NCBI RefSeq assembly: GCF_035084215.1
Contig: NC_090353.1
Location: 37,882,001 to 37,946,000, forward strand
Direction of reading: 5' to 3'
Source of the DNA: Heptranchias perlo
Taxonomy: Eukaryota
DNA length: 64,000 nucleotides
Part shown: positions 13,168-62,188 of the stretch, in pieces
Position numbering within the stretch: position 1 is the first letter of the stretch
Layout: each line of letters opens with the position of its first letter
Translations under genes and position numbers: made by a program
The notes under the pieces: generated by a model
Database searches by the model: none
The model's input: only the letters and a program-made list of their open reading frames with translations
Told to the model about the DNA's origin: nothing

Positions 13168-14349
13168 AAGAAGGTTTTGGGGGCATCAGGAGAGCAAGAA
13201 GTAGGAGTTCTGCGGACGTTCCTCGATGTCCCACTTAACTTCGGCGATCAGGAAAGCAGTGTGGAAATTAGCCGAACGTGCTGGGCAGTGAGTGAGTGGT
13301 GTCAGTGGGGGGGCCAGTAATGGTGGGAGGACCCTGCACTGCAGTCTCATGGTGACATGAGCCCAGTTATTAGTGGGGGAGCACGAAGGATGTTTATATG
13401 ACTCTCCTCTACCTGTTATTTTAGTGCCAGTCATTTAAATCAGCAGGTCAGCACCTGCCTTAAAATAGTAGCTGAAGGAGGATTAGAGTCGTCCTCTAAC
13501 GAGCCACAGTGGTTCCCAGTCTAGAGTTCCCAGGACGAACCAGGCTGTAGTGATGTAAGGAACTGCAACAGTACCTGTCCTGTTAAATTAAACCCACTTC
13601 AATCCAAGATATTTCTCCCAGTCACATCAATCTCCTCAATAAATCGTCAGACAGCTCTGGGAGTTTCTGTTTTTTCCACCAATTAATTCTCCTCGGAGAG
13701 TTATGGAGCACCTTCTCTGATATTGGCCAGGATTCATTACTCCGAACGTCAGCCTTCACAGCAGGATATTCAACAGTGGAAGGCATCACAGATGACCTCA
13801 CTCTTGTCCTCACTCACTGCCCACATATGGATTTTCCAGCAGGTTTACATAGAATGACATAGAATGTACAGCACAGAAACAGGCCATTTGGCCCAACAGG
13901 TCTATGCCGGTGTTTATGCTCCACACGAGCCTCCTCCCTCCCTACTTCATCTCACCCTATCAAGAGTCACTGGATAGTCAGCGATAAGGAGCAGGAACCC
14001 TGGCTGATGTCCCCCCTCCTTGCCCGAGACTTCTGTTGCCCTTTCTGGTACCTGTATCACTCTTGAACTAACTCGGCGCAGGTTGAAGTTTGAAGCCTGG
14101 GTGCTGCAGCTCAGCTAATCCCTGAATAACTCAGTCAGCCATTGGTGGCGCCCGCCTGGCATTGTCTATTGTAATGTTATTCTGTAATAGTTTACATGAA
14201 CCAACTGCTGCTTCCTCGGATGACGGAGCCGGTGTGGGGCGATATTTACGTCTGCGTGCAGGGGTTTCCTGCAGCCTTGTTATAACACCCTTAAATATAC
14301 AGGGGAGAGCTGCAGCTGTGGAAACACATCGTTTAGAGGCAGACAACAA

Positions 14350-14428
14350 ATGGACGTCTCACTGCTTTCTCAGACGCTCAATGTCTTCACTGCTTTGCTC
14401 TCATCTGCTGGAGCCTGCTGCTCACAAG
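14350..14428 (+). CDS. PAR4-like receptor copy 1, exon 1 (signal peptide)
   Basis: MDVSLLSQTLNVFTALLSSAGACCSQ+G, phase-1 donor AAG|gttaga. Homologous to exon 1 of copies 2 and 3 (MD...LLS.A..C.S); TATA-like ttaaatata about 55 nt upstream. Confidence 0.72.
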
Positions 14429-14859
14429 GTTAGATTCATCCCCTTACTTCACTCTTTCCTCCATCACCCATAAGCTATTCTACGTTTAGGGAGCTAAACT
14501 AAAGTCGGGGTCTTTAGAGAGCACATTGAGTGTGTTGCCTGGATAATTCTTCCTGATCCATTAAGTTTTAGATCAAACAGCAAAATGTTGATGGTCCCAG
14601 CCTGGGTGAAATGAAGCTTCTGATTCCGAATCTTTCTAAGATTCCGAGGCTCTGTGAGATGTTCTAAACAAATTGGCCAACTGCAAATATATTTCCTATC
14701 TTCAAAAATAAAGATAGAACTAACCCAGGGAACCAGTGAGCCCAATGTCAGAGGTAGGAAAAATACCAAAATCTTTGCTAAACGATCAGATAACAAAACA
14801 TCTTGAGACAGAGAATGTAATGAAAAAATAGTCAGCATGGATTTCTAAAAGGACGACAT

Positions 14860-15060
14860 AACTAAACAACCTTAATGAATTCTTTGAAGAAATGACAGAG
14901 AATAGACCAGGGCAGTGTAGTTGATGTGATATACATAGACTTTCAGAAAGCCTTCGATAAGATGCCACATAAAGACTCATCACAAAGGTCAGGGCCATTG
15001 GGGTCAGGGGCCAGGAAGCAGAATGGATTGAAAGATGGCGATAGAACAGGAAACAGAAGC
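14860..15060 (+). mobile_element. Degenerate CR1 RT fragment
   Basis: Remnants of TNL.EFFE and DFQKAFDK motifs. Confidence 0.6.
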
Positions 15061-15102
15061 AAGGAGTGAGATCGTTTACCAGGGTGTGGGTCAGGACTGA
15101 GA

Positions 15103-15420
15103 CTGGTTAATGTGTGTGATTGATTGATTGGTTAATATGTGTGATTGGTTGATTGGTTAATGTGTGCGATTGATTGATTGGTTAATATGTGCGATTGATT
15201 GATTGGTTAATGTGTGTGATTGATTGATTGGTTAATGTGTGGAATTGATTGGTTAATGTGTGTGTGATTGATTGACTGATTGGTTGATTAGTTAATGTGT
15301 GTGGTCAATGTGTGGGATTGATTGGTTAATGTGTGGGATTGGTTAACGTGATTGGTTAATGTGTGGGATTGATTGATTGGTTAATGTATGTGATTGGTTA
15401 ACATGACTGATTGATGTGTG
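15103..15420. repeat. Degenerate (gattggttaatgtgtgt)-type minisatellite
   Basis: Repeated gatt/ggttaatgtgtg units. Confidence 0.85.
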
Positions 15421-16233
15421 CTTTCCTGAGGTCACATCAACAAGAAGCAAAAGAATCAGCAGGAAAGTACTTGTACTACAAGAGAATAAAATTCCTGAAA
15501 GAAATGGTTTGGGGGAGGCTTTTGGTGATGTGTACTCATTTTTAAGGGTTAGCCTGAGTGTTATCAGTGTTTTGTAGATTTCCTAAGTTTCAATTGAAAC
15601 TTGGAAGCAGATCCTGGTCGGTGAGCAGATATTCAGTGAAAGGCAACGTTTCAATGTGGATTGGCAGAAGGACAGGTTCATGTTGGGCAAATGAACAGTG
15701 AGACGTGACAGGTTGAACTGATTTAACCACAGCACTGGGAGAAGGTGACACTGGATAGGAGGAGGAGACATTGATATATTAAGATTTCACACATGGGTCA
15801 AGGGCTGAGGCCATTTGCTCTTTGTCGCTGCTGTTCAGTTGTGTCGGGAGGTGGGAGATCCTGTTACTTGAGTCCGCTGTCTTTGACGGTCTCTGCTGCC
15901 TCTCCTTAACTAGTCTTTCAACAGAGAAAAGTGAACACGTGGACAAATAAATAGTGTGAGTATTGGTGAGGACAGTTTGATGTTCATTAAGGCACTGGGT
16001 GCTATTTTACGCACAAGAAATGTCTATCATGATGAAAGGAATATTATTGGAGACACAAATTGTAATAATGTATTTGAGATCCTACCGCTGGATGGAATTG
16101 AGCACAGTGCAGTTAATTAAAGGCGTGTGTTGTACACTAAAATAAACTGACCAATCCTCAAGTCCCAGGGTATAGTTTACACCAACAGGAAGACGAGCTC
16201 CAAAATGACAAAAAAAATCTTTTTTTATTTCAG

Positions 16234-17318
16234 AATCTTCGCTATTTGAATTTCAAGATGTTATTAATCCAATCACAAACTCAACTAATAATTCTGCAAT
16301 AATTCAAAATGTGCTGAGTGAATCACCAAGATATTATCTGACCAGTTCTGTCACCACGGTGATGATTCCTGCCATTTCCAGCATCATCTTTGTCATTGGT
16401 CTCCCAGCCAATGGGCTGGCTCTTTTGGTTCTGGTCACCAAGGTCCAGAGAATGCCTTCCACCATCTTCCTGATGAACCTGGCGACTGCTGATCTTCTCC
16501 TGATCCTAGTGCTGCCGTTCAAAATCCACTATCACTTCCTGGGCAATGACTGGCTCTTTGGTGAGGGTCTGTGTCGGACAATGACCGCCTTCTTCTATGG
16601 GAACATGTACTGCTCCATCCTGCTCCTCACCTTCATCAGCATCGACAGATACTTCGCTCTGGTCCATCCATTCTTCTCCAAACGCTTCAGGGACAATACG
16701 TTTGCCGTTGGTGCCTGTTCGGTGATTTGGGCGCTTGTTGTACTCTCCGTGTTACCGTTTCTCCTCCAGAGGCAGACGTACCCAATCCAGGATCTAAACA
16801 TCACCACCTGCCATGATGCCTTGCCAGGAAACCTGCAGTCTGGTTATTTCTTCTATTACTTTGTGTGTTTGGTTGTGTTTGAGTTTCTCATTCCCTCTCT
16901 TGTTACTATATTCTGTTACGTGTCTATAATCAAAACATTGATGATTAATGAAGGTAAATATGCCAAAGCTGTAAGGACCATAATTCTAGTGCTGATAGTG
17001 TATGTGGTGTGTTTCACCCCCAGTAATATAATCCTCCTCATCCACCACTCTGAGTATCACCTCACACATTCCAGTGACCTGTATTTCTATTATATGATCT
17101 GCCTGGCACTCAGCACCTTCAATAACTGCATCGACCCTTTCATCTACTACTACATCTCCGAGGAGTTCAGGGACAAAGTGAGAAGTTTGATCTGGTTTTG
17201 CAAAGAAACAAAAGATGAAGATTCAAGAAAAACAGCCCAGAAACTCCTTCTGGCCAACATCACATCAGGATCTAGACCAAAAGCACCAGTAGGAGATCTT
17301 GAACGAGGGCAGCTGTAG
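16234..17318 (+). CDS. Protease-activated receptor 4-like GPCR copy 1, exon 2 (7TM); spliced 387 aa
   Basis: Acceptor tttatttcag; in-frame stop at 16206 excludes an upstream extension. Motifs PANGLAL..PST..LMNLATADLLL, YGNMYCSILLL, DRY, TTCHDALP, DPFIYYYISEEFRDKVR; the last two best match PAR4/F2RL3. Confidence 0.93.
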
Positions 17319-20529: not shown

Positions 20530-20611
20530 ATGGACTTCCCTGAACTCTCCCGAAGACTCTTTCTCTTTACTCTGTTACTCTCACCTGCAGCAGTCTGCCA
20601 GTCGAAAGAAG
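20530..20611 (+). CDS. PAR4-like receptor copy 2, exon 1 (signal peptide)
   Basis: MDFPELSRRLFLFTLLLSPAAVCQSKE+G; 82 nt; donor AAG|gtaaga; phase 1 joins exon 2 in frame. Confidence 0.85.
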
Positions 20612-21351
20612 GTAAGACTTTTATTGGTTTACTTCACTCCTTCTCTCCTGTAATATATTTTAGATTTATCGGGGAGTCTGTGCGCCTGCAACTCAGAAAA
20701 CCATTTTGAGAACACACTGGAGCCAGTTCAGGAGCTCTCCCTGTTACATCCCTGAAACAGTCTGGGTTGAAGCATATTTTTGATTCCAAATAATTTTAAG
20801 ATGGTGAAGCTGTGTGAGATTTTATCAATAAACGGGTGATTTCCCCAGTTCCTCCGTCTTGTTGCAATTATATCTCTGCTTCTCAGGAGTCGCTCATCTC
20901 TGGTGCCTTTGGCCGACATCATGCGCTCATTTCAGCTTTGTAACATCAGTTTAGCAGCTGGCAGGTTGCAGTTTCCAGCTGCAAGGTAAGACTGTCCCGG
21001 GGTGAGGTGGAGCTGAAGCAGATGTTACAACTGCTGTCGACAGAATTCTTACTCTGCAATTGTTAAATGTTTCATTAGAGTGACACGCACTCGATGGGTT
21101 GATGCTGTCGGTGATGGATTACAGCAAACTGCTTTTTATCCTGCCCCAGTGACATGTCCTACAGCAACGTTATTCCCCTTTAAGAGCATTCGAGCAAGTT
21201 CTGTTCAGAACGTATTTACAGCACACAAAGGCTAGCATTTCCTCCTCACCAGCAGGGTCCTTTTACGATCAGTTTGGTCAAATATAGATGGGTAGATTTT
21301 AAGTTGCTGCCCGGGATCAGACACCCGTTAACAAAACCGCCTGATTTTCAT

Positions 21352-21675
21352 TTCATAGGAACAGGAGGAGGCCATTCAGCCCCTCGGGCTTGTTCCGCCA
21401 TTCAATTAGATCACGGCTGATCTGCAACTCAGCTCCATTTTGCCCACCTTTGCTCCGTATCCCTCGATACCGACAAAAATCTATCGATCTCAGTCTTGAA
21501 AGCTCCAATTGATCCCCAGCATCCACAGCCTTTAGGGGGAGAGTTCCAGATTTCCACTCTCCTTTGTGTGAGGAAGTGCTTCCTGATTTCACCCCTGAAC
21601 AGCCTGGCTCTAATTTTAAGGTTCTGCCCCCTTGTCCTGGACTCCCCCCACCAGACGAAATAGTTTCTCTCTCTC
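21352..21675 (-). mobile_element. CR1 3' end
   Basis: CR1 3' UTR (gaatggcctcctcctgttcctatg); similar copy at 22915-23120. Confidence 0.7.
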
Positions 21676-21809
21676 TCTATTAAAAAGGGAAGTGGGTGAA
21701 TATTTGAAAGGACAGGGGAATGGGATGAAGTGGATGGATAGCGGACACGGGGAAGATGGGAATGGCTTCCTTCTGTGCTGTAAAATTTTAATTTAATGTT
21801 AACTGATGC

Positions 21810-22430
21810 AAGTTAATAAGGCCATAAAAATGCAAACCAAGCACTGGGGTTCATTTCTAGAGGGATAGAATTGAAAAGCAGAGAAGTTATGTTAAACATA
21901 TACAGAACCTTGGTTAGACCACACTTGGAGAACTGTGCGCAGTTCTGGTCTCCATATTATAAAAGGATATAGAGGCACTGGAGAAGGTGCAAAAAAGATT
22001 CACAAGGATGATACCAGAACTGAGAGGTTATAACTATCAGGAAAGATTGAACAGGCTGGGGCTCTTTTCTCTAGAAAAGACAAGGCTGAGAGGTGACCTG
22101 ATAGAGGTCTTTAAAATTATGAAAGGGTTTGATAGGATAGACGTAGAGATAATGTTTCACTTGTGGGGAGGCCATAAATATAAGATAGTCACTAATAAAT
22201 CCAAAAGAGTGGTGAGAATGTGGAACTCGCTCCCACAAGGAGTGGTTGAGGTGAATAGTGGAGATGGATTTAAGGGGAAGCTCGATAAACACATGAGGGA
22301 GAAAGGAATAGAAGGATATGCTGATAGGGTGAGATGAAGTAGGGAGGGAGGAGGCTCGTGTGGAGCATAAACACCGGGATAGACCAGGGGGGCCGAATGG
22401 CCTGTTTCTGTGCTGTAAATTCTTTGTAAT
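21810..22430 (+). mobile_element. CR1 3' fragment
   Basis: VQKRFTRMIP...RLRGDLIEVFKI ORF 21987-22337. Confidence 0.85.
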
Positions 22431-22601
22431 TTAAGGTAACTTTTGGGTCGATACAAATCTATCCCAAAAATGGATAATAAGAAGAAGTTGATAGATTCTT
22501 GTGGCTGATTTTGTATTCTGATTGGCTCTCGATCATTTTTACAAGCTTGATCAAGGACACTGTGAGTTGGATGTGGTAATAAATCCTTGCGCTTGAGGGG
22601 C

Positions 22602-22812
22602 TTTTTTTTTTATTCGTTCACGGGATGTGGGCGTCGCTGGCGAGGCCGGCATTTATTGCCCATCCCTAATTGCCCTTGAGAAGGTGGTGGTGAGCCGCCT
22701 TCTTGAACCGCTGCAGTCCGTGTGGTGACGGTTCTCCCACAGTGCTGTTAGGAAGGGAGTTCCAGGATTTTGACCCAGCGACAATGAAGGAACGGCGATA
22801 TATTTCCAAGTC
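22602..22812 (-). mobile_element. LINE family A 3' end
   Basis: Reverse complement of the family A tail, with polyT. Confidence 0.85.
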
Positions 22813-23185
22813 TGAATGGCCTGCTCCTGTTCCTCTGTAACTAAAGATGAAAAAATGCTTTTATTTGAAATTATCAGCTTATCCTCTATTCTCAGCACAT
22901 AATGGGTTTTTTTCATAGGAACAGGAGGAGGCCATTCAGCCCCTCCTGCCTGTTCCAACATTCAATTAGATCATGGTTCATCTGTACCTCAACTCCATTT
23001 CCCCGCCTTTGCTCCGTATCCCCTGATCCCCTCACCCAACAAAAATCTATCGATCTCAGTCTTGAAAACTCCAATTGACCCCCAGCACCCACAGTCTTTG
23101 GGGAGAGAGTTCCAGATTTCTAGTGCTTTACAACTTTAACTAGGAACTAAAACCCTAACATTAAAAAATCTTTCTTTTTGTGCAG

Positions 23186-24231
23186 ATTCCCCAAAAGCCA
23201 ATGGGAGAAGTTTCCGATTTTCTGTTGCTGGTCCCAACAATGTGCTGAATGAATCAGCATTGAATCACCTGACCAGTTCTGTTACCACGGTGATGATTCC
23301 TGCCATTTCCAGCATCATCTTGATTATTGGTCTCCCAGCCAATGGGCTGGCTCTTTTGGTTCTGGTCACCAAGGTCCAGAGAATGCCTTCCACCATCTTC
23401 CTGATGAACCTGGCGACTGCTGATCTTCTCCTGATCCTAGTGCTGCCGTTCAAAATCCACTATCACTTCCTGGGCAATGACTGGCTCTTTGGTGAGGGTC
23501 TGTGTCGGACAATGACCGCCTTCTTCTACGGGAACATGTACTGCTCCATCCTGCTCCTCACCTTCATCAGCATCGACAGATACTTCGCTCTGGTCCATCC
23601 ATTCTTCTCCAAACGCTTCAGGGACAATACGTTTGCCGTTGGTGCCTGTTCGGTGATTTGGGCGCTTGTTGTACTCTCCGTGTTACCGTTTCTCCTCCAG
23701 AGGCAGACGTACCCAATCCAGGATCTAAACATCACCACCTGCCATGATGCCTTGCCAGGAAAAGTGGACTCTGGTTATTTCTTCTATTACTTTGTGTGTT
23801 TGGTTGTGTTTGAGTTTCTCATTCCCTCTCTTGTTACTATATTCTGTTACGTGTCTATAATCAGGGCATTAATGGTTAGTGAACAGCAATTCGGGCAAGC
23901 TGTAAAGACCATGGTGTTAGTGCTGATAGTGTATGTGGTGTGTTTCACGCCCAGTAATATAATCCTCCTCATCCACCACTCTGAGCATCACCTCACACAT
24001 TCCAGTGACCTGTATTTCTATTATATGATCTGCCTGGCACTCAGCACCTTCAATAACTGCATCGACCCTTTCATCTACTACTACATCTCCGAGGAGTTCA
24101 GGGACAAAGTGAGAAGCTTGATTATTTGCAAAGAAACAAAAGATAAAGATTCAAGAAAAACGGCCCTTCAGCTGGTTCAGAGCAGCTCCTCCTCAGGGTC
24201 TGACACGAAGATATCAGTGAGGAGTATTTGA
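23186..24231 (+). CDS. PAR4-like GPCR copy 2, exon 2; spliced 375 aa; predicted cleavage ANGR/SFRFSV
   Basis: Acceptor tttgtgcag; reads DSPKANGRSFRFSVAGPNNVLNES... in frame with ORF 23242-24231; full 7TM motifs. Confidence 0.93.
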
Positions 24232-30088: not shown

Positions 30089-30735
30089 CCTTGCGGCCCA
30101 TTCTTTGGGCGACATTATATTGAACAGACTAACAGGGTTCTCTCTCACCACCCAGGGGCTCCACGGATAATGTACTGTCTGTACTGAGCTAAACAGACCA
30201 GGAAATTCTCAGCAATCTCCTGACCGTTAACTTTCATGATACGCTCAAGTCCCGGGTTGCATCGTAAACCCACAAACTGACTCAGAGAGGAGTGCTACCA
30301 ACTGAGACAAGTGATCACTTGGACTCCTTGCCTGTTGTAGTTTAGTTTGACAATATGCTGTAGCACTCGTTTTATTCTTTGTCGTGTGACTGTTGCTTTT
30401 CTGTTTGTAGCAAAAATAAACACAGTGTAAAGTATTTTTTAAAAAGTCAACGGGAAGAATCCCGAGTTTTGTGAGGTAATTTTCCCTCCTCTGCTAGTTC
30501 TGGTCAGCACCAGCGGATAACGCTGTGGTTTCCTGATGTTGCTGCGAGTTGTTTGATAAAGTGCAGGATCAACATCTGTACATGACGAGCTCCTCATCCA
30601 AATGCTCCGGGTTTCCTGCAGCTTCATTGTAACCTCCTAAAATAAAAAGGAGAAAGAGACTGATAAAAAAAACTCACATCAGTTAATCCAGAGCCAGGCT
30701 GTCGCCCAGAGGGCAAACGGTGCAGATCGGCAACT

Positions 30736-30817
30736 ATGGACCTGTCCCGGCTGACCTGTGCACCCACTCTCCCACTCCTGTTACTCTCATGTGCAATGCT
30801 CTGTTACTCCCAGGAAG
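30736..30817 (+). CDS. PAR4-like receptor copy 3, exon 1 (signal peptide)
   Basis: MDLSRLTCAPTLPLLLLSCAMLCYSQE+G; 82 nt; donor AAG|gtaagacttt shared with copy 2; 5' context tcggcaRctATGgac shared with copy 2. Confidence 0.85.
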
Positions 30818-31086
30818 GTAAGACTTTGTGCATCACCCTTTCTTCTCAAAGTGTGTCTAGTCTGGCTGGAGCTGCCTCTGCGTCTCAAAATATTTTGAGC
30901 ATGTGAATTATTTTTTTTGTACCTTCCAGCTGAGATTGGTTGGCAGAAATCCATAAAAGCTGCCTGTGAGCCAGACATTGGTCAGAATGGGAGAGCCTCA
31001 AAACATGCACCCACACATTCCTGCTGCACCTCAACAGTGCTCTACCTGAACAGCATCGAAACCACTGGAGTGCTTAATGATACATA

Positions 31087-31995
31087 ATAGAGGGAGCTTT
31101 ACTCTGTATCTAACCCTGTACCTGCCCTGGGAGTGTTTGATGGGACAGTGTGGAGGGAGCTTTACTCTGTATCTAACCCTGTACCTGCCCTGGGAGTGTT
31201 TGATGGGACAGTGTAGAGGGAGCTTTACTCTGTATCTAACCCTGTACCTGCCCTGGGAGTGTTTGATGGGACAGTGTAGAGGGAGCTTTACTCTGTATCT
31301 AACCCGTGCTGTACCTGCCCTGGGAGTGTTTGATGGGACAGTGTAGAGGGAGCTTTACTCTGTATCTAACCCGTGCTGTACCTGCCCTGGGAGAGTTTGA
31401 TGAGACAGTGTAGAGGGAGCTTTACTCTGTATCTAACCCTGTACCTGCCCTGGGAGTGTTTGATGGGACAGTGTAGAGGGAGCTTTACTCTGTATCTAAC
31501 CCGTGCTGTACCTGCCCTGGGAGTGTTTGATGGGACAATGTAGAGGGAGCTTTACTCTGTATCTAACCCTGTAACTGCCCTGGGAGTGTTTGATGGGACA
31601 GTGTAGAGGGAGCTTTACTCTGTATATAACCCGTGCTGTACCTGCCCTGGGAGCGTTTGATGGGACAGTGTAGAGGGAGCTTTACTCTGTATCTAACCCG
31701 TGCTGTACCTGCCCTGGGAGCGTTTGATGGGACAGTGTAGAGGGAGCTTTACTCTGTATCTAACCTGTGCTATACCTGCCCTGGGAGTGTTTGATGGGAC
31801 AATGTAGAGGGAGCTTTACTCTGTATCTAACCTGTGCTATACCTGCCCTGGGAGTGTTTGATGGGACAATGTCGAGGGAGCTTTCCTCTGTATCTAACCC
31901 GTGCTGTACCTGCCCTGGGAGTGTTTGGTGGGACAGTGTGGAGGGAGCTTTACTCTGTATCTAACCCATGCTGTACCTGCCCTGGGAGTGTTTGA
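31087..31995. repeat. 63/67-bp minisatellite, about 14 copies, in copy 3 intron
   Basis: Unit gggagctttactctgtatctaaccc(gtgc)tgtacctgccctgggagtgtttgatgggacagtgtaga. Confidence 0.95.
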
Positions 31996-32877
31996 TTCTG
32001 GCACTGGACAAATCTTCCATTCTCAGTTAAGATGAGATATTGCCCATCATTCGGGTATGTTTAGAATGTTTGACTGTATTGGGGTGTTTAGATATTGTAC
32101 ATTCCCAGTATTTGCTGGACAATCCGATGGTTTGGGGCAGTCGAGAGCTGAAAATCGCCCCCAGTGTCTTGCACTAATTCAATATCTTTTCCTTGCTTTT
32201 ATTCTCAGCCTCTCAGTATAAAAACCCAGAATCCCATTTCTATTTTTATGACCTTTTCCCCTTGATTCCCACCTTCGAAGTTCTGTTGAGTTTTACCAGG
32301 TGGGATACGCTTCTTTCACTGTTCTTTTCCCCAAAGTTTCCTACTTCACATCGCTCCGCAGTGAACTGTATCTGACCGATCCGCCCACTCCACTAAACCA
32401 GTCCTTGTTCTCCTGCAACCTCCTGCTTTCTTCCTCCCGGTTTGAAAGTCCACCCCAGTTTGGTATCATCAGTAACTTCAGTAGCAATCCTCCTGTGCCT
32501 GCGTCCTAATCATTTATGTGAATGGGAAACAAAGGAGCTAAAAGCACAGACACAATGGGCTGAATGGCCTCCTTCTGTGCTGTAAGATTCTATGATTCTG
32601 GATCCCTGGGACACACCACAACCCACAGTCTGCCATTCCAAAAACACCCATTTGGCCCCACATTTTATTTTCCATTCCCCTCACTTTTCCTGTATCCATG
32701 CAGCTGTCTCACTTTTCGAACTGTTGACAGACAATAAAATAACCTGATGGAAACAGTAAGTATAACAAAGATCTAAAGACAGGACTGGAGCAGAAAATAG
32801 GCACTGAAGGAATTTCAAAATATTAAAAACTATTATTGCACTGTGATTATTAACATCCAGTTTCCTCTTGTCTGTAG

Positions 32878-33944
32878 GAGGTTCAGGAAATGAAGCAAAT
32901 GGAAGAAGTCTATTCATCAATATTGTTACTTCAGCAAAGCACTCAAACATTTCTATGAATGTGTTAGATAAATCAGCCAAGCATCACCTGACCAGCACTG
33001 TCACCACAGTCATGACCCCTGCCTTTTACATCATCATCTTTGTCATTGGTCTCCCAGCCAATGGGCTGGCTCTTTTGGTTCTGGTCACCAAGGTCCAGAG
33101 AATGCCTTCCACCATCTTCCTGATGAACCTGGCGACTGCTGATCTTCTCCTGATCCTAGTGCTGCCGTTCAAAATCCACTATCACTTCCTGGGCAATGAC
33201 TGGCTCTTTGGTGAGGGTCTGTGTCGGACAATGACCGCCTTCTTCTACGGGAACATGTACTGCTCCATCCTGCTCCTCACCTTCATCAGCATCGACAGAT
33301 ACTTCGCTCTGGTCCATCCATTCTTCTCCAAACGCTTCAGGGACAATATGTTTGCCGTTGGTGCCTGTTCGGTGATTTGGGCGCTTGTTGTACTCTCCGT
33401 GTTACCGTTTCTCCTCCAGAGGCAGACGTACCCAATCCAGGATCTAAACATCACCACCTGCCATGATGCCTTGCCAGGAAACCTGCAGTCTGGTTATTTC
33501 TTCTATTACTTTGTGTGTTTGGTTGTGTTTGAGTTTCTCATTCCCTCTCTTGTTACTATATTCTGTTACGTGTCTATAATCAAAACATTGATGATTAATG
33601 AAGGTAAATATGCCAAAGCTGTAAGGACCATAATTCTAGTGCTGATAGTGTATGTGGTGTGTTTCACCCCCAGTAATATAATCCTCCTCATCCACCACTC
33701 TGAGTATCACCTCACACATTCCAGTGACCTGTATTTCTATTATATGATCTGCCTGGCACTCAGCACCTTCAATAACTGCATCGACCCTTTCATCTTCTCC
33801 TACATCTCCGAGGAGTTCAGGGACAAAGTGAGAAGCATAACATCTGCTAGTAAAGATAAGAAGAGTGAAGACTCCAGAAAAACAATCCTTCAAACAGACA
33901 GCTCATCAGCATCGAGAACAATCGCATCACTAAAATGTATTTAA
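32878..33944 (+). CDS. PAR4-like GPCR copy 3, exon 2; spliced 382 aa; predicted cleavage ANGR/SLFINI
   Basis: Acceptor cttgtctgtag; GGSGNEANGRSLFINIV...; full 7TM; TM7 reads DPFIFSY. Confidence 0.93.
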
Positions 33945-36155: not shown

Positions 36156-36699
36156 CTCTGCTGCCGGCTGGGAAACAGTGAAAAAAAATTCAAATGAGGT
36201 CTTGCTGTTAAATTCGACAGGACATCCGGTTTCCTGTATTTCCACGTTCCCCGTATTTCCGGGTTTCCCGTATTTCCAGGTTTCCCGGCCGCTACGACAT
36301 CCCCACTCCTCCCTCCTCCTGCTCCTTCCCCCCGAACCCTCCCACTCCCTCCCCACACCCCCGCTCCCTCTCCGCACCCCTCATTTGCCCACAAGCACCC
36401 TCCTGCTCTCCCCCCGCACCCTGCCTGCTCCCCCTAACGCTCCCTCCCGCACCCTTCATACTCTTTCCCACGCTCCCCAAACCCACTCCTGCCTCCCCGC
36501 TCCACCCCCCTCCCGCTCCTCCCAACTCCTTCCCTGTTCCCACTGCTCCCACCCTCACTCTCCCTCACCCAGTGCTTTCAGGTCTGTGCTTTTGACAGAC
36601 ACCAATCCACCAGTGAGACAAACCTTCCCTTCCACCCGCAGTTGTGTTGAATCTTAGATTCACTTTCTACAGTGATGTCAGATCAAAGGCCACCCCAAA

Positions 36700-38743
36700 C
36701 TGCAAACTCCACTCACCCAGTGTGAACAAACTCCACTAACCCAGTGTGAACAAACTCCACTCACCCAGTGTGAGCAAACTCCACTAACCCAGTGTGAGCA
36801 AACTCCACTAACCCAGTGTGAGCAAACTCCAGGAGCCCAGTGTGAGCAAACTCCACTAACCCAGTGTGAGCAAACTCCACTAACCCAGTGTGAGCAAACT
36901 CCAGGAGCCCAGTGTGAGCAAACTCCACTAACCCAGTGTGAGCAAACTCCACTAACCCAGTGTGAGCAAACTCCAGGAGCCCAGTGTGAGCAAACTCCAC
37001 TAACCCAGTGTGAGCAAACTCCACTAACCCAGTGTGAGCAAACTCCAGCAGCCCAGTGTGAACAAACTCCCGGAGCCCAGTGTGAACAAACTCCCGGAGC
37101 CCAGTGTGAGCAAACTCCAGGAGCCCAGTGTGAACAAACTCCACTAACCCAGTGTGAGCAAACTCCACTAACCCAGTGTGAGCAAACTCCAGGAGCCCAG
37201 TGTGAGCAAACTCCACTAACCCAGTGTGAGCAAACTCCACTAACCCAGTGTGAGCAAACTCCAGCAGCCCAGTGTGAACAAACTCCACTAACCCAGTGTG
37301 AGCAAACTCCAGGAGCCCAGTGTGAGCAAACTCCAGGAGCCCAGTGTGAACAAACTCCACTAACCCAGTGTGAGCAAACTCCACTAACCCAGTGTGAGCA
37401 AACTCCACTAACCCAGTGTGAGCAAACTCCAGGAGCCCAGTGTGAACAAACTCCACTCACCCAGTGTGAACAAACTCCACTCACCCAGTGTGAACAAACT
37501 CCACTAACCCAGTGTGAGCAAACTCCACTAACCCAGTGTGAGCAAACTCCACTAACCCAGTGTGAGCAAACTCCAGGAGCCCAGTGTGAGCAAACTCCAC
37601 TAACCCAGTGTGAGCAAACTCCACTAACCCACTGTGAGCAAACTCCACTAACCCAGTGTGAGCAAACTCCAGGAGCCCAGTGTGAGCAAACTCCACTAAC
37701 CCAGTGTGAGCAAACTCCACTAACCCAGTGTGAGCAAACTCCAGCAGCCCAGTGTGAACAAACTCCACTAACCCAGTGTGAGCAAACTCCAGGAGCCCAG
37801 TGTGAGCAAACTCCAGGAGCCCAGTGTGAACAAACTCCACTAACCCAGTGTGAGCAAACTCCACTAACCCAGTGTGAGCAAACTCCAGGAGCCCAGTGTG
37901 AGCAAACTCCACTAACCCAGTGTGAGCAAACTCCACTAACCCAGTGTGAGCAAACTCCAGCAGCCCAGTGTGAACAAACTCCACTAACCCAGTGTGAGCA
38001 AACTCCAGGAGCCCAGTGTGAGCAAACTCCAGGAGCCCAGTGTGAACAAACTCCACTAACCCAGTGTGAGCAAACTCCACTAACCCAGTGTGAGCAAACT
38101 CCACTAACCCAGTGTGAGCAAACTCCAGGAGCCCAGTGTGAGCAAACTCCACTAACCCAGTGTGAGCAAACTCCACTAACCCAGTGTGAGCAAACTCCAC
38201 TAACCCAGTGTGAGCAAACTCCAGGAGCCCAGTGTGAGCAAACTCCACTAACCCAGTGTGAGCAAACTCCACTAACCCAGTGTGAGCAAACTCCAGCAGC
38301 CCAGTGTGAACAAACTCCACTAACCCAGTGTGAGCAAACTCCACTAACCCAGTGTGAGCAAACTCCAGGAGCCCAGTGTGAGCAAACTCCACTAACCCAG
38401 TGTGAGCAAACTCCAGCAGCCCAGTGTGAGCATACTCCACTAACCCAGTGTGAGCAAACTCCAGCAGCCCAGTGTGAACAAACTCCCGGAGCCCAGTGTG
38501 AACAAACTCCCGGAGCCCAGTGTGAACAAACTCCACTAACCCAGTGTGAGCAAACTCCAGCAGCCCAGTGTGAACAAACTCCAGCAGCCCAGTGTGAACA
38601 AACTCCACTAACCCAGTGTGAACAAACTCCACTAACCCAGTGTGAGCAAACTCCAGCAGCCCAGTGTGAACAAACTCCACTAACCCAGTGTGAACAAACT
38701 CCACTAACCCAGTGTGAGCAAACTCCAGCAGCCCAGTGTGAAC
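36700..38743. repeat. 24-bp minisatellite, about 85 copies
   Basis: Unit cccagtgtgagcaaactccactaa with variants (aggag, agcag, cggag). Confidence 0.95.
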
Positions 38744-39319
38744 AGTCAAACCTCACCACTGACCAGTGCTTCTAAAGGCCAGGATTGCTCCCAAAGTGCA
38801 AAGCTGTCATCTCCTGTAGCTACAGCCCATTCACCCTCCCCAGTGCTGCTAAATGTCAGCGGGTGCATTCCATGGGGATTCTCCTGCTTTGTTGGTAGAG
38901 CCACAGAAACCCCAGGGAAATGACAGAAATTAAATGCATTCCTTAACGAACTAAGAGCCTCTTCCTTTACCTCAGTAATTATCTCTTTTAAACTTACGAT
39001 TTATGTCAGTGTGGGTGCTCAATGGGAACAGCCATTGGAGAACCAAAGAGCATCCTGAGGCCAAGAAAATAGCAGATTCTCAGGCTTATCTTGAGCAATG
39101 TCACAGGAGGTGTGCTAGTAGAGATTGAGCAAGAGAGGGTGGAGAGAAAGGCAAGGAGAGAAAGACAGAGACCCGCAGAAAGAGGGCGATGGGAAAAAGA
39201 GAGAGGGCCTGGGAGAGATGCCGAGCTCACAGCCGGAGACACGGGTAGATGTGGGGGAGCTCACTCTCTTCCATCACCAGCCTGTGTTGATCCCTAACTC
39301 TCAGCCTCACTGCTTCTCC

Positions 39320-39530: not shown

Positions 39531-40355
39531 CACAGGTAAATAAACAACAAAAACTGGAACCCTGAATCGAAAAACTGAAACCTAGAAAATCTCAATGGCC
39601 TCAAGATCTTTCAGACCTGGGTGGGTTTTAAGTCAGATTGCAGATAGTTTCTCCACCGGGTCACGATGATTTCTTCAGCATTATTGTATTATTTAACATT
39701 TTCACATATGGAATACAGTATTTTGCTGTTAACCAGATTTTGTTATGTTAAAATAAACTTACTCACTTTATGTAAAAGCCTTTTTCCTGTAACTTTAATA
39801 AATGATAATCAAACCCTCCTTTGTCTCTTCCTGCTCAGTTTTACTGGACTGATTTCTGAACAATTTTGTTTCATTTCTGCGAGGTTAAAATAACCCCCTC
39901 TCTCGCCAGAGTGAAGATTAGCCTGAGTCCCACGCTGTTTAAACTTTCAACAGGGACAATTTTCAACAGACTGCTTCCATCGGGAGAGAGACGGACAAGC
40001 CAAGCACACGGCCCACCCAGTCCCGGCAGGCAGGGACCCCAGTGCAGAGCGAGTCATTGCAAATTATTATCCCAGGGAGGGCTGTGCAGGGTCGCACATC
40101 GGAGGGGTCGATTTTTGGAGAGCCTGAAGGAGCGTTACTGTGTTCCTCTTCTTTTTAACCCCTTCAAACACAGCCCTGCTCACTCACTCACTCAGTATAT
40201 GCGGCCAATGACCTGCTGCATCAATCCCTGGTGCTTTACAGTTACCCAACACCCGAATATCCTTCTTCTTCAAAATGCTACATCAGTGGGCAAAACAAGT
40301 ATGGTGGCACTTTTCTGAATCTGTGGGAAGCCCCCATGACGCCCCTGTGACGAAC

Positions 40356-41290
40356 GCCTGTCACTACTGTACCATGAGGTGGCCCTGTCACTACTGTACC
40401 ATAAGGTGGGCCTGTCACTACTGTACCATGAGGTGGGCCTGTCACTACTGTACCATGACGTGGGCCTGTCACTACTGTACCATAAGGTGGGCCTGTCACT
40501 ACTGTACCATAAGGTGGGCCTGTCACTACTGCACCATGAGGTGGGCCTGTCACTACTGTACCATGAAGTGGCCCTGTCACTACTGTACCATAAGGTGGGC
40601 CTGTCACTACTGTACCATGAAGTGGCCCTGTCACTACTGTACCATAAGGTGGGCCTGTCACTACTGTACCATAAGGTGGGCCTGTCACTACTGTACCATG
40701 AGGTGGCCCTGTCACTACTGTACCATAAGGTGGGCCTGTCACTACTGTACCATGAGGTGGCCCTGTCACTACTGCACCATGAGGTGGGCCTGTCACTACT
40801 GTACCATGACGTGGGCCTGTCACTACTGTACCATGACGTGGGCCTGTCACTACTGCACCATGAGGTGGGCCTGTCACTACTGTACCATGACGTGGGCCTG
40901 TCACTACTGTACCATGACGTGGGCCTGTCACTACTGCACCATGAGGTGGGCCTGTCACTACTGTACCATGAAGTGGGCCTGTCACTACTGTACCATAAGG
41001 TGGGCCTGTCACTACTGTACCATGACGTGGGCCTGTCACTACTGCACCATGAGGTGGGCCTGTCACTACTGTACCATGACGTGGGCCTGTCACTACTGCA
41101 CCATGAGGTGGGCCTGTCACTACTGTACCATGATGTGGGCCTGTCACTACTGCACCATGAGGTGGCCCTGTCACTACTGTACCATGACGTGGGCCTGTCA
41201 CTACTGTACCATGAGGTGGCCCTGTCACTACTGTACCATGACGTGGGCCTGTCACTACTGTACCATGACGTGGGCCTGTCACTACTGGAT
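40356..41290. repeat. 27-bp minisatellite, about 34 copies; resumes at 45412-45665
   Basis: Unit gcctgtcactactgtaccatgaggtgg. Confidence 0.95.
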
Positions 41291-41417
41291 CACGAATTGG
41301 CACTTCTTTTTTATTCATTCATGGGAAGTGGGCATCACCTGGCAAGGCCAACATTTATTGTCCATCCCTAATTGTCCTTGAGAATGTGGTGGTGAGCCGT
41401 CTTCTTGAACCACTGCA

Positions 41418-48160: not shown

Positions 48161-48884
48161 GTCCCACATCATGTCCTATTCAGTCACGTGATGGTTGCTG
48201 TCACTACTTCGATTCTCAGTTTGTGATCTGTGTCCCGTGCTCGGTTCAGATGAATTTTGTACTGTCCTCTCTGGCACATCGAAAAGTACATTTTAACTTT
48301 TGAGATCGGTCAAAAAGATGGAAAAAGAAACAGTATTTGAATCCAGAGCAGGAAATGTGTGTGAGAGAGATATGATATTGTTATATTATCTCAGATACAA
48401 AAGTAAGCATGAATTCTGATAACGTAACATGATAAATAAAAACCCTTCCTTTTAAAGCTGTCAAAATCCACAAGTAACTTCCATATTTTAAAGTTTATCA
48501 TTAAAATAATTGTTTCAAATGAGATCTGTTTAGGAGATAAATGGAACTTGCTGCAAAGACAGAACTTAATCCATGGCACTGAACTAACACTGCAGATATT
48601 AGTAGATGAGCACTTAATATGTTTGTACGAAATTCCCTTGCCCGATTTTGAATGGAAGGACTGACATGTGCCAGTCTCTAATCTCCATCAGTTCCAGGGC
48701 GAGCAACTGGTGCCAAGCAGCGCCAATCAATGCTGCCAGGCTCACACTCGCAGGATTTCTGTCTCTGCTCAGAAAATATTAAAACAAAGCTCAGTAGAAC
48801 ACGTTTCGGAGCAACATTTCATTTTAGTCATGTTCTTTCCTTTTGCTTCCAATTTTCTCACCTCCTCTCCTGAAGGTGTTAATT

Positions 48885-50045
48885 CTCCCTGGGCTGCAGT
48901 TCCCCGGGCATTGACTCTCCCTGGGGTACAGTTCGCCGGGCATTGACTCTCCCTGGGGTACAGTTCCCCGGGCATTGACTCTCCCTGGGGTACAGTTCCC
49001 CGGGCATTGACTCTCCCTGGGGTACAGTTCCCCGGGCAATGACTCTCCCTGGGGTACAGTTCGCCGGGCAATGACTCTCCCTGGGGTACAGTTCCCCAGG
49101 CATTGACTCTCCCTGGGGTACAGTTCCCTGGGCGCTGACTCTCCCTGGGGTACAGTTCCCTGGGCGCTGACTCTCCCTGGGGTACAGTTCCCCGGGCATT
49201 GACTCTCCCTGGGGTACAGTTCCCCAGGCATTGACTCTCCCTGGGGTACAGTTCCCTGGGCGCTGACTCTCCCTGGGGTACAGTTCCCCAGGCAATGACT
49301 CTCCCTGGGGTACAGTTCCCCGGGCATTGGCTCTCCCTGGGGTACAGTTCCCTGGGCGCTGACTCTCACTGGGGTACAGTTCCCCGGGCAATGACTCTCC
49401 CTGGGGTACAGTTCCCCGGGCCATGACTCTCCCTGGGGTACAGTTCCCTGGGCGCTGACTCTCCCTGGGGTACAATTCTCTGGGCATTGGCTCTCCCTGG
49501 GATACAGTTCCCCGGGTGCTTAGTCTCACTGGGGTACAGTTCCCGGACACAGACTCTCACTGGGGTACAGTTCCCGGACACTGACTCTCACTGGGGTACA
49601 GTTCCCCGGGCAATGACTCTCCCTGGCATACAGTTCCCCGGGCAATGACTCTCACTGGGGTACAGTTCCCCGGGCAATGACTCTCCCTGGCATACAGTTC
49701 CCCGGGCAATGACTCTCCCTGGGGTACAGTTCCCAGACACTGACTCTCCCTGGGGTACAGTTCCCAGACACTGACTTTCACTGGGGTACAGTTCCCAGAC
49801 ACTGACTCTCCCTGGGGTACAGTTCCCTGGGCACTGACTCTCACTGGGGTACAGTTCCCTGGGCACTGACTCTCACTGGGGTACAGTTCCCCGGGCATTG
49901 GCTCTCCCTGGGATACATTTCCCCGGGTGCTGACTCTCACTGGGGTACAGTTCCCTGGGCACTGACTCTCACTGGGGTTCAGTTCCCCGGGCATTATCTC
50001 TCCCTGGGGTACATTTCCCCGGGTGCTGACTCTCCCTGGGGTGCG
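48885..50045. repeat. 32-bp minisatellite, about 36 copies
   Basis: Unit gactctccctggggtacagttccccgggcatt. Confidence 0.95.
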
Positions 50046-50465
50046 GGTTCCACGGGCACCATGTCCTCTCCACAACCTTGCCCGAGTGACCATGTGTGAA
50101 CCTAGTCAGGAGATTTGGCCTTGGGACGGAGTGTAATATTTCAACTGAATTCGATCTTGTCCTCACCTGACATTCACACAAATAGAAGGTGAAATTGGTC
50201 TTTACCAGCAGCGTGAAACAGGCTCGTAGTAAATCTGTGGCCTGTTTTCTAACACACCCAGTTATCCTTTCCATTGAAGTCAGTCGGGTCCAGTGTAAAA
50301 TGAGCTGCCGATTCACAATGAGCCCATTTTGTGTTACTGGCAAAGACCAATTGCACTCCCCTCCTGTCCAGGATCGGTCACCTGACACTATGTCAGGAGC
50401 TGGATCCCAGGCCGATTTACTCCTCTCCAGCTCAGGCATTGAGAATACATTTTATAGAATAAACA

Positions 50466-57424: not shown

Positions 57425-58410
57425 AGATTTGCATTTCTATCGTGCCTTTCACACCCTCGGGACATCCCAGAGTGCTTTACAGCCAATGAAGTACTTTTGA
57501 AGTGTGGTCACTGTTATAATGTAGGAAATACAGCAGCCAAATTGTGCACAGCAAGATCCCACAAACAGCAATGTGATACTGATCAGATCATCTGTTTGTT
57601 GATTGAGGGATAAATATTGGCCAAGACACTGGGAGAACATTCCAGTTTTTCTTCTTAACGTCCACCCGAGGGGGCGGACGGGACCTCGGTTTAACGTCTC
57701 ATCCAAAAGACAGCATCTCTGACAGTGCAGCGCTCCCTCAGTACTGTCCCTCCCACAGTGCAGCGCTCCCTCAGTACTGACCCTCCGACAGTGCAGCGCT
57801 CCCTCAGTACTGACCCTCCGACAGTGCAGCGCTCCCTCAGTACTGCCCCTCCGACAGTGCAGCGCTCCCTCAGTACTGACCCTCCGACAGTGCAGCGCTC
57901 CCTCAGTACTGACCCTCCGACAGTGCAGCGCTCCCTCAGTACTGACCCTCCGACAGTGCAGCGCTCCCTCAGTACTGACCCTCTGACAGTGCAGTGCTCC
58001 CTCAGTACTGACCCTCCGACAGTGCAGCACTCCCTCAGTACTGACCCTCCGACAGTGCAGCGCTCCCTCAGTACTGACCCTCCGACAGTGCAGTGCTCCC
58101 TCAGTACTGACCCTCCGACAGTGCAGCGCTCCCTCAGTACTGACCCTCCGACAGTGCAGCACTCCCTCAGTACTGACCCTCCGACAGTGCAGCGCTCCCT
58201 CAGTACTGACCCTCCGACAGTGCGGCGCTCCCTCAGTACTGACCCTCTGACAGTGCAGCGCTCCCTCAGTACTGACCCTCCGACACTGCAGCACTCCCTC
58301 AGTACTGCCCTAGGAGAGTCAACCTGGATTTTGTGCTCAAGTCTCTGGAGTGGGACTTGAACCACGACCTTCTGACTCAGAGGTCAGCGTGTGACCCATG
58401 GATGACACTG
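57425..58410 (-). mobile_element. Deu-domain tRNA-SINE with internal 33-bp unit expanded to about 18 copies
   Basis: Reverse complement of the element at 10575-11130; array 57720-58307. Confidence 0.8.
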
Positions 58411-60305: not shown

Positions 60306-60387
60306 ATGAATTGTAATTTGCTGGTACCAGCTCTGCTACTGACACTTTCAACCTTCTGGTGTCGGGCAGCTACTCCAGACTATGACG
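60306..60387 (+). CDS. Probable exon 1 (signal peptide) of a fourth PAR-family gene; exon 2 lies beyond the window
   Basis: MNCNLLVPALLLTLSTFWCRAATPDYD+G; 82 coding nt, phase 1, donor G|gtgagactttt. Same length, phase and donor context as PAR copies 2 and 3. Confidence 0.6.
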
Positions 60388-60761
60388 GTGAGACTTTTCC
60401 CTTTTACAATAATAGGTCAGAAATAGAACAGCGGAGTTTGTGGGGTTTTGTTGTTGATGCTTCCTATGTCCTGGGAAACTCGGAGAGTCTGAGTACAAGC
60501 TGATGGACAGAGTGCCTGAAATGTGCTTTCATTCTGAGTAAATGTGTCTCACACAAAAACTGCAATTTCTATAGAGCTCCTCTCAGAATGCTTTGCATGG
60601 CAGAGGAAAAAGAGTAGACACAGGGGGGATGGGAGGTGGTGGAGAGGGAAAGGGGGAAGGTGAAAACACAGACAAAAGGATAGCTTTTTAGGAAACTTTT
60701 GAAATCAGGAAGGGAGGCCCGAGCCAAGGGATTTATAGAGGGGGCTCCAGAGAGTATGCTA

Positions 60762-62188
60762 TATTCAGAGAGTGCGGTGTATTTAGAGAGTACGGTGTAT
60801 TCAGAGAGTGCGGTGTATTCAGAGAGTGCGGTGTATTCAGAGTGTGCGGTGTATTCAGAGAGTGCGGTGTATTCAGAGAGTACGGTGTATTTAGAGGGTA
60901 CGGTGTATTCAGAGAGTGCGGTGTATTCAGAGAGTGCGGTGTATTCAGAGAGTACGGTATATTTAGAGGGTACGGTGTATTTAGAGGGTACGGTGTATTC
61001 AGAGAGTGCGGTGTATTTAGAGAGTGCGGTGTATTTAGAGAGTGCGGTGTATTTAGAGAGTGCGGTGTATTTAGAGGGTACGGTGTATTTAGAGAGTACG
61101 GTGTATTCAGAGGGTGCGGTGTATTCAGAGAGTGCGGTGTATTCAGAGAGTGCGGTGTATTTAGAGGGTACGTGTATTCAGGGGATGTGGTATATTCAGG
61201 GGATGTGGTATATTCTGAGCGCATGGTATATTGAGAGGGTACGGTGTATTTAGAGGGTACGGTGTATTTAGAGGGTACGGTGTATTCAGAGAGTGCGGTG
61301 TATTCAGAGAGTGCGGTGTATTTAGAGAGTACAGTGTATTCAGAGAGTACGGTGTATTCAGAGAGTGCGGTGTATTCAGAGTGTGCGGTGTATTCAGAGA
61401 GTACGGTGTATTCAGAGTGTGCGGTGTATTCAGAGAGTACGGTGTATTTAGAGGGTACGGTGTATTTAGAGGGTACGTGTATTCAGGGGATGTGGTATAT
61501 TCAGGGGATGTGGTATATTCTGAGCGTACGGTGTATTTAGAGGGTACGGTGTATTTAGAGGGTACGGTGTATTCAGAGAGTACGGTGTATTTAGAGGGTA
61601 CGGTGTATTTAGAGGGTACGGTGTATTTAGAGGGTACGGTGTATTTAGAGGGTACGGTGTATTTAGAGGGTGTGGTGTATTTAGAGGGTACAGTGTGGTA
61701 TATTCTGAGAGTATGGAGTATTTAGAGGGTACGGTGTATTTAGAGGGTGCGGTGTATTCAGGGGATGTGGTATATTCTGAGAGTATGGTGTATTCAGAGG
61801 GTACGGTGTATTTAGAGGGTGTGGTGTATTTAGAGGGTGTGGTGTATTTAGAGGGTACAGTGTGGTATATTCTGAGAGTATGGTGTATTTAGAGGGTACG
61901 GTGTATTTAGAGGGTACGGTGTATTTAGAGGGTACAGTGTGGTATATTCTGAGAGTACGGTGTATTTAGAGAGTACGGTGTATTTAGAGGGTACGGTGAA
62001 TTTAGAGGGTACGGTGTATTTAGAGGGTACGGTGAATTTAGAGGGTACGGTGTATTTAGAGGGTACGGTGTATTTAGAGGGTACGGTGAATTTAGAGGGT
62101 ACGGTGTATTTAGAGGGTACGGTGTATTTAGAGGGTACGGTACGGTGTATTTAGAGGGTACAGTGTGGTATATTCTGAGAGTACGGTG
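60762..62188. repeat. 18-bp minisatellite (agagagtgcggtgtattc / agagggtacggtgtattt)
   Basis: Direct reading; unit composition drifts along the array. Confidence 0.95.

Follow-up and report, generated by a model that had tools for sequence, protein, structure and literature searches.

To our knowledge, all four mammalian PARs have a cut site and a tethered sequence of their own. Most PAR genes consist of two exons (PMC4771116) and the CHD motif has been described as a feature of the PAR ECL2 (PMC10179473). The first residue of a PAR ligand has to be free and located deep in a narrow pocket, and the second residue pushes Tyr7.32 (PMC12033368). Cleaved PAR1 can provide the ligand for PAR2 in trans (PMC4771116). 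In mouse platelets PAR3 is non-signalling; it forms dimers with PAR4, whose activity it damps (PMC3566007). An influence of PAR3 on PAR4 is also described in PMC10179473 and PMC4026716. For PAR4, cleavage by cathepsin G was reported at Ser67 and at Arg68, the cut at Ser67 leading to a biased active ligand and the cut after Arg68 to no signalling (PMC12927046).

In the open literature (main texts in PMC and bioRxiv), no paper was found on a PAR4 cluster of sharks or rays or on a gene-encoded ligand-less PAR. The one survey of PAR evolution that was found includes no cartilaginous fish among its taxa (PMC4771116), and in the whale shark genome paper PARs are mentioned once, in generic terms (PMC8455134).

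In this study, a window of 64,000 nucleotides of the shark Heptranchias perlo (RefSeq assembly GCF_035084215.1, contig NC_090353.1, positions 37,882,001 to 37,946,000, forward strand) was analyzed. Three complete receptor genes were identified in the window, all on the + strand and each composed of a short first exon and a large exon (Table 1). Of a fourth PAR4-type gene (P0029) the second exon lies outside the window. The cluster comprises at least six PAR4-type genes in H. perlo, two of them beyond the four that touch the window. NCBI automatically named the cluster members PAR2-like or PAR3-like; copy 1, whose protein is already annotated in RefSeq, was named "PAR3-like".

Among the solved structures, PAR4 (8yrq) was the best match of copy 1 with 278 bits, followed by PAR2 (269 bits) and PAR1 (264 bits). 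The bony-vertebrate proteins among the 120 listed of 902 matches were PAR4, PAR4-like, hypothetical or unnamed, and none was PAR1, PAR2 or PAR3. The Pfam domain 7tm_1 was detected in copy 1 with an E-value of 1.2e-53, C219-H220-D221 corresponds to the CHD motif of ECL2, and the layout of a short first exon and one large coding exon matches that of PAR genes. Copy 1, a spliced gene within a tandem cluster, is treated here as a putative paralogue of the PAR4 type (F2RL3-like), a class assignment made with trees that contain no PAR1-3 outgroup. By descent and fold it would be PAR4-derived; it was not classed as a functional PAR, since neither a cut site nor a ligand of its own could be recognized.

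The Pfam scan covered 107 of the 190 candidate frames of the window and yielded only an EF-hand exon and LINE domains, and no synteny marker of F2RL3. The EF-hand remained below the Pfam cut-off (E-value 5.6e-5) and is located in a frame at 5034-5312 (+), which resembles the last exon of an S100 gene. Long open frames composed of tandem repeats (36676-38775, 40212-41381, 48769-50105, 57449-58383, 60569-63469 and others) are present in the window as well, together with LINE reverse-transcriptase and endonuclease fragments; there was no sign that the long repeat frames are genes.

Table 1. Features of the PAR4-type genes in the window (positions refer to the window; an arrow marks a cut-site position or the position corresponding to one).
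Feature	Position	Strand	Remarks
Alternative upstream exon	12270..12317	+	One X1 contig; 5' end within the N gap 12114-12269
Copy 1 exon 1, coding part	14350..14428	+	Encodes residues 1-26 and ends with one further base; signal peptide predicted, hydrophobic core weak
Copy 1 intron, phase-1 GT-AG, 1805 nt	14429..16233	+	Joint found in X1 and X3; no micro-exon candidate
In-frame TGA 5' of the acceptor	16206..16208	+	Excludes a 5'-extended exon 2
Copy 1 large exon	16234-17318	+	With exon 1, RefSeq XP_067824695.1/696.1 (Heptranchias perlo), 387 aa
Exon-2-encoded ectodomain	16234..16337	+	35 aa (residues 27-61), the first Lys/Arg being Arg59; aligns colinearly with the ray orthologues
Ser29-Leu30-Phe31	16239..16247	+	Resembles a ligand; differs in rays and lies outside the ligand register of the siblings
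Gln34↓Asp35	16254..16259	+	Corresponds by register to the cut site of copy 3; in 6/6 complete members an invariant Asp comes after an acidic or amide residue
Thr41↓Asn42	16275..16295	+	Corresponds by register to the cut site of copy 2; N-glycosylation sequons at Asn42 and Asn45 come next
Pro58-Arg59-Tyr60-Tyr61	16326..16337	+	Arg59 in the column of human PAR4 Arg68, next to the bonds cut by cathepsin G
Rest of exon 2	16338..17318	+	7TM body and lineage-specific C-tail; stop at 17316-17318
Copy 1/copy 3 near-identical tract	16408..17127	+	60-column bins: 10/12 at 100%, 2 at 98%
Copy 2	20530..24231	+	Exons 20530-20611 and 23186-24231; canonical site R↓S-F; XP_067824700.1
Copy 3	30736..33944	+	Exons 30736-30817 and 32878-33944; canonical site R↓S-L-F; XP_067824699.1
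Fourth PAR4-type gene (P0029), first exon	60306..60401	+	tblastn and translation

The intron of copy 1 starts with a GT donor at 14429 and ends with the acceptor AG at 16232-16233, resulting in a spliced frame of 387 aa. The spliced N-terminus given in a preliminary description of this locus matches the RefSeq protein; a second upstream exon, ending at 12317, had been missed. Logan contigs bridging 14428 and 16234 with GT..AG ends were found in two of the four runs (depth 43 in X1 and 25 in X3, the shorter side being 28 letters long); letters between the two sides are marked as not known, and none are listed. The four sequencing runs represent one sample from one study, possibly the source of the RefSeq annotation, and their RNA status is a guess, but a spliced joint is expected from RNA. 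The contig depths provide no ranking of the copies and no level or cell type.

Exon 2 had been described as having no longer form because of the stop at 16206, and this was confirmed: the TGA is in frame, and no AG occurs between it and 16232. An additional exon carrying an Arg site is likewise not indicated, since contigs bridge the joint, no candidate emerged when the whole intron of 1805 nt was screened for micro-exons (phase 1, 9-120 nt), and the alternative upstream exon contributes no Arg. This exon was detected in an X1 contig in which 55 loose letters join 16234; a 30-letter consensus of them maps to 12288-12317 and is followed by GT. The junction of 12317 with 16234 creates an in-frame TAA, and the exon is a non-coding leader. 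The next in-frame ATG after this splice is Met70 in TM1, where the 318-aa form of NCBI (P0122) starts.

Two further observations were made upstream of copy 1. At 14219-14325, alternative N-termini of stingray and manta proteins ("isoform X1/X2") match weakly in two frames (best E-value 0.031), which is probably due to a conserved 5' leader mis-read as coding and would mildly support orthology. In addition, a 48-nt stretch with 77% identity around a TATA-like AT-rich run is found in the upstream regions of copy 1 (14262-14309) and copy 3 (30609-30656).

For the analysis of the activation site, the region 15-36 residues before the L-T-S anchor was searched for a basic residue (R or K) followed by a small and a hydrophobic residue. 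The motif was identified in all 33 complete sibling ectodomains, belonging to three lineages (13, 13 and 7), vs none of the six of the copy-1 lineage, whereby three short ray models and the lineages E and F were left out. The value for the siblings, but not that for the copy-1 lineage, is partly circular, since proteins were assigned to lineages by visual inspection of their N-termini and the motif was defined with these sequences already in view. The lack of an activating Arg site, as stated in the preliminary description, is confirmed. It had been treated there as a property of one copy, whereas it is common to the ray orthologues.

The sequence A-N-G-R precedes the ligand in both copies 2 and 3, as described before. 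Arg59 (16329-16331, after Pro58) is the sole Lys or Arg within residues 1-66 of copy 1, in line with the earlier statement that a Pro-Arg provides the only basic residue before TM1. The propeptide had been regarded as absent, which does not agree with the length of the exon-2-encoded ectodomain (104 nt in copy 1 vs 110 nt in copy 3 and 83 nt in copy 2). Judged by the similar length in copy 3, the propeptide segment of copy 1 is substituted in place, not deleted. Whether the site was lost through a compensated frameshift was considered, and this was not supported: the codons of the copy 3 site R↓S-L-F resemble the copy 1 DNA of Gln34-Ile37 out of frame, but with two gap settings 1074 and 533 of 2000 shuffled sequences attained the same local score.

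The distance between the ligand start and the L-T-S anchor was found to be 20-22 residues in the copy-2 type and 26-27 residues in the copy-3 type and group D. At the copy-3 distance, the copy-1 lineage reads Gln, Glu or Asp followed by Asp. At residue 41, which is the exact copy-2 cut distance, five ray ectodomains carry Lys or Arg and two skates carry Val. Rays with a basic residue 41 may be cleavable there; the freed ends (G/D/H-S-V/M) do not appear ligand-like and lie beside the sequon Asn45-Asn-Ser, which is invariant in all six complete lineage members. Residues 27-35 contain three acidic residues in the shark and four to five in rays, and aromatic residues (two Phe) in the shark only. 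The combination of a hirudin-like exosite-I motif and an own thrombin site, which defines a PAR3-type cofactor, was not found in copy 1. The AlphaFold2 model of copy 1 has a mean pLDDT of 60, with values under 50 for residues 19-56, and is uninformative for the ectodomain.

The S-L-F motif had been interpreted as a ligand exposed near the signal cleavage site. If so, signal peptidase, an aminopeptidase or a Glu-specific cut would provide a ready-made ligand, and the receptor would be constitutively or easily active. The ligand of copy 3 begins with the same three residues, the pocket of the shark receptor is intact, and a PAR ligand positioned right after the signal peptide yielded an active receptor in structural constructs (PMC12033368). 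However, S-L-F starts 33 residues before the L-T-S anchor, compared to 20-27 residues for the sibling ligands, and in three global DNA alignments the R↓S-L-F codons of copy 3 are located opposite Gln34-Ile37, not opposite Ser29-Phe31. The ray residues opposite S-L-F are S-E-S (two), P-E-S (two) and S-I-S (one), so that Leu-Phe is kept in none of the five, which makes a pre-exposed ligand unlikely.

Signal peptidase sites follow the (-3,-1) rule. A cleavage just before Ser29 fails this rule, and the passing sites of copy 1 range from Ser18 to Ser25. The best 9-mer hydropathy of its N-terminus is 1.77, vs 2.57-3.11 in six relatives. A site after Ser25 agrees with the rule in copies 1-3 as well as in both further proteins of the copy-3 type that were tested, but not in the two ray orthologues tested, for which the passing sites are after Ser18 or Thr20. 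In copy 1, cleavage after Ser25 leaves Gln26 at the N-terminus, and an N-terminal Gln tends to cyclise, blocking aminopeptidases. After a cut at Glu27↓Ser28 the chain would begin with S-S-L-F and be shifted by one residue. The motif in copy 1 is probably a coincidence, and its use as a ligand is given a very slight probability. Among the activation modes proposed earlier, a disarmed or decoy-like receptor fits best, whereas constitutive, aminopeptidase or Glu-protease activation based on S-L-F is unsupported. In copy-3-type proteins, the signal peptide is followed by an acidic Ser-Gly stretch (e.g. 32878-32900), with E-x-S-G-D/N in many of them, which resembles the consensus of a glycosaminoglycan attachment site.

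Copy 1 groups with eight ray proteins (two mantas, two stingrays, an electric ray, a sawfish and two skates). The SH-aLRT support was 96 in a quick tree of 67 full-length proteins and 98 for the termini only (42 proteins). Since the ray proteins form one clade, each change in them counts as one event. Five full ray ectodomains could be aligned to copy 1 without internal gaps, with identities of 37-49% and a mean of 43%. In the equivalent shark-ray comparison of the canonical siblings (six proteins each), the mean was 41% for each lineage, and the copy-1 ectodomain is thus not decaying faster. Ten positions are invariant in all six ectodomains: Asp35, Ser43, Asn45, Asn46, Ser47, Ile50, Ser57, Arg59, Tyr60 and Tyr61. 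The split between sharks and rays occurred more than 200 million years ago. The copy-1 lineage is shown to be old, common to this shark and the rays, and devoid of a trypsin- or thrombin-type site with a usable tethered ligand.

No orthologue from galeomorph sharks, sawshark or chimaera was found among the 120 of 902 matches listed and 30 opened clusters; the 20 of these clusters that were opened additionally contained no member of group A (the copy-1 lineage) from galeomorph sharks or chimaera. A search with the N-terminal region of the stingray protein returned only two known clusters among 16 candidates, and no further orthologue was found among five shorter proteins. In the TM-core tree, copy 1 is placed with copy 3 of its own species, unlike in the full-length and termini trees, and in galeomorph sharks the copy-2-type and copy-3-type proteins of one species or of close relatives form pairs. 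This fits concerted evolution or gene conversion of the TM core, with lineage-specific ends. Concerted evolution also conceals paralogues within 90% clusters, and copy 1 itself was found under the cluster of copy 3.

Alternatively, copy 1 could lack a function of its own, either as a redundant duplicate on which selection is relaxed or because the locus was mis-modelled or collapsed. The near-identity of the TM core could reflect an assembly collapse, the leader exon provides no signal peptide, three of the eight ray models are N-terminally short, and the orthologue was not seen in several shark groups among the listed matches. On the other hand, the frame is open, the joint is spliced, and the copy-specific 5' and 3' ends of copy 1 are covered by contigs without differences. 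The ectodomain is as conserved as the canonical ones, and homogenisation of the core is also seen for sibling pairs of other sharks in the core tree. A relaxed duplicate or an artefact is considered very improbable.

Outside the window, a second lineage (SH-aLRT 100; P0050, P0059, P0061, P0062, P0068, P0072, P0083, P0114 and their cluster members) consists of models without signal peptide. Most of them show P-x-x-G-G-(V/L/I) where a clear Arg site would be expected, and in some an upstream Y-S-P-R is added. These may be another non-canonical PAR or truncated models. The protein P0045 of the chimaera Callorhinchus milii is of the PAR4 type; its ectodomain is long and may contain a K↓Y-F site, and its position near group D has modest support.

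The receptor body was compared over 165 aligned proteins, with generic numbers counted from conserved prolines. In copy 1 the motifs CHD, DRY, Y5.58, Y7.32, Y7.35 and DPxxY are intact. The tethered-ligand pocket is kept (ECL2 His/Asp/Leu, Y3.33, H6.58, Y7.32 and Y7.35) with the exception of position 6.59, a His as in 52 of 149 relatives. The pocket residues named for PAR1 and PAR2 (ECL2 His and Asp, Y3.33, Y7.32 and Y7.35; PMC12033368) are present in copy 1 and all eight ray proteins. All ray proteins also carry Lys6.52 (N6.52K) and Glu7.40 (A7.40E), each found in none of the 149 other proteins, as well as Phe7.53 (Y7.53F), which occurs in two others, copy 3 of the window and one horn shark protein. 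Position 7.53 belongs to the DPxxY motif, which is part of the activation path of PAR1 (PMC11443083). The shark copy 1 shows none of these TM6/TM7 changes (Asn6.52, Ala7.40, Tyr7.53); in the four runs no contig difference is listed at the three codons, which fits the assembly, the copies being unphased. TM7 of copy 3 (33783-33830) reads D-P-F-I-F-S-Y, with Phe7.53 despite a canonical ligand. The last 45 residues contain 7 Ser/Thr in copy 1 vs 13 and 15 in copies 2 and 3, and the lower number could mean a weaker phosphorylation-driven shut-off.

The ray substitutions bear on a further explanation, according to which the lineage left protease sensing and binds a soluble ligand (a peptide, a lipid or a nucleotide-like compound), with Lys6.52 and Glu7.40 as the new site in rays. 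Other receptors of the PAR branch of GPCRs bind soluble ligands, and P2Y8 is the next-best solved relative of copy 1 after the PARs. The two buried charged substitutions are unique to the ray clade, the length of the ectodomain is constant and its glycosylation sequon is fixed. In the shark copy, however, positions 6.52 and 7.40 are Asn and Ala and the core hardly differs from that of copy 3, and the residues of the PAR ligand pocket are fully kept. A soluble ligand is regarded as distinctly improbable.

The remaining basic residue, Arg59, is an Arg in all eight ray proteins and basic in 107 of the 149 other proteins of the family (56 Lys, 51 Arg). This family-wide occurrence identifies it as ancestral and not as an adaptation of the copy-1 lineage. 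It had been suggested that a cut at this Pro-Arg would remove the whole ectodomain. A cut after Arg59 should be silent, since PAR4 cut after Arg68 is silent, while a cut before Arg59 is a real alternative.

Copy 1 could have been re-tuned to non-trypsin proteases, with a cut by a neutrophil-type protease before Arg59, which would free R-Y-Y-L, or a cut by an acidic-site protease before the invariant Asp35. The cut before Arg59 would be analogous to cathepsin G freeing the Arg68 ligand of human PAR4, Arg59 being aligned with Arg68. Ser57, Arg59, Tyr60, Tyr61 and Asp35 are invariant in all six complete lineage members, and rays carry Ala or Thr before the Arg. For PAR2, an elastase cut near TM1 was described to result in biased signalling without a tethered ligand (PMC4026716). 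In contrast, the shark has Pro58 before the Arg, and Pro is a poor P1 for neutrophil-type proteases; the basic residue in this column is not lineage-specific either. A ligand starting with Asp does not suit the pocket, which accommodates a small residue in first place and a hydrophobic one in second place (PMC12033368). Activation by non-trypsin proteases, the main rival explanation, is considered somewhat unlikely.

The explanation tentatively favoured here, as possible but short of probable, is that copy 1 is an old ligand-less PAR4-type paralogue acting as a partner or modulator of its cleavable neighbours. The missing motif, the grouping with rays, the constrained ectodomain, the kept pocket, the TM6/TM7 changes of the rays and the precedents of PAR1-PAR2 and PAR3-PAR4 speak for a partner role. 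Copy 1 would be a surface receptor whose ectodomain is short, acidic and glycosylated, and would be unable to activate itself after trypsin-type cleavage. In the shark, where its TM core is nearly identical to that of copy 3, it could take the freed ligand of a neighbour in trans and signal via its own C-tail. In rays, where Tyr7.53 is lost, the lineage would more likely tune or damp its neighbours, as mouse PAR3 does with PAR4. One mechanism may not cover both, since the TM6/TM7 changes of the rays are missing from the shark copy. It is doubtful, although conceivable, that PAR signalling is split in this cluster, with the cleavable copies as sensors and ligand donors and this lineage as a ligand-less acceptor or brake.

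If such a split applies, copy 3 (ligand, Phe7.53) and copy 1 (no ligand, Tyr7.53) would form a genetically encoded donor-acceptor pair, while the receptor of the ray lineage, with its new pair Lys6.52/Glu7.40, would have stopped signalling or been re-purposed. The loss of the site is real, and older and more general than initially assumed; the role is proposed from sequence. A PAR paralogue kept without site and ligand in sharks and rays would be a natural test of ligand-independent PAR functions such as trans-activation, dimer-based tuning and non-canonical cleavage, which are live questions for PAR3 and PAR4. The shark copies, with a near-equal TM core and differing ends, represent a ready-made swap series, and the ray proteins flag three TM positions that can be assayed for their effect on PAR activation.

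Compared to human and tetrapod PAR4 (F2RL3), copy 1 has the same two-exon layout, the CHD motif, an Arg in the Arg68 column and its best structure match. Unlike PAR4, it has no Arg47↓Gly48-type site or ligand and is part of a cluster of at least six PAR4-type genes. The bond Pro58↓Arg59 of copy 1 is located in the same alignment column as the cathepsin G sites Ser67/Arg68 of PAR4, where cleavage is secondary to the canonical site, whereas the P1 residue of the shark would be Pro.

The proposed role resembles that of mouse PAR3, a PAR acting on a sibling and not via its own ligand (PMC3566007; PMC10179473), and both have an acidic N-terminal stretch. Mouse PAR3 differs in being cleaved by thrombin and in having a tethered sequence and a hirudin-like exosite motif, whereas copy 1 has no basic P1. 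In the trans-activation of PAR2 by PAR1, a receptor with an intact pocket similarly takes the freed ligand of its neighbour (PMC4771116); PAR2 keeps its own site, whereas copy 1 as an acceptor would be ligand-less by design. Proteolytic disarming of PARs likewise leaves a receptor without a tethered ligand (PMC4026716). This disarming is post-translational, whereas the loss in copy 1 is encoded in the gene and was kept in sharks and rays.
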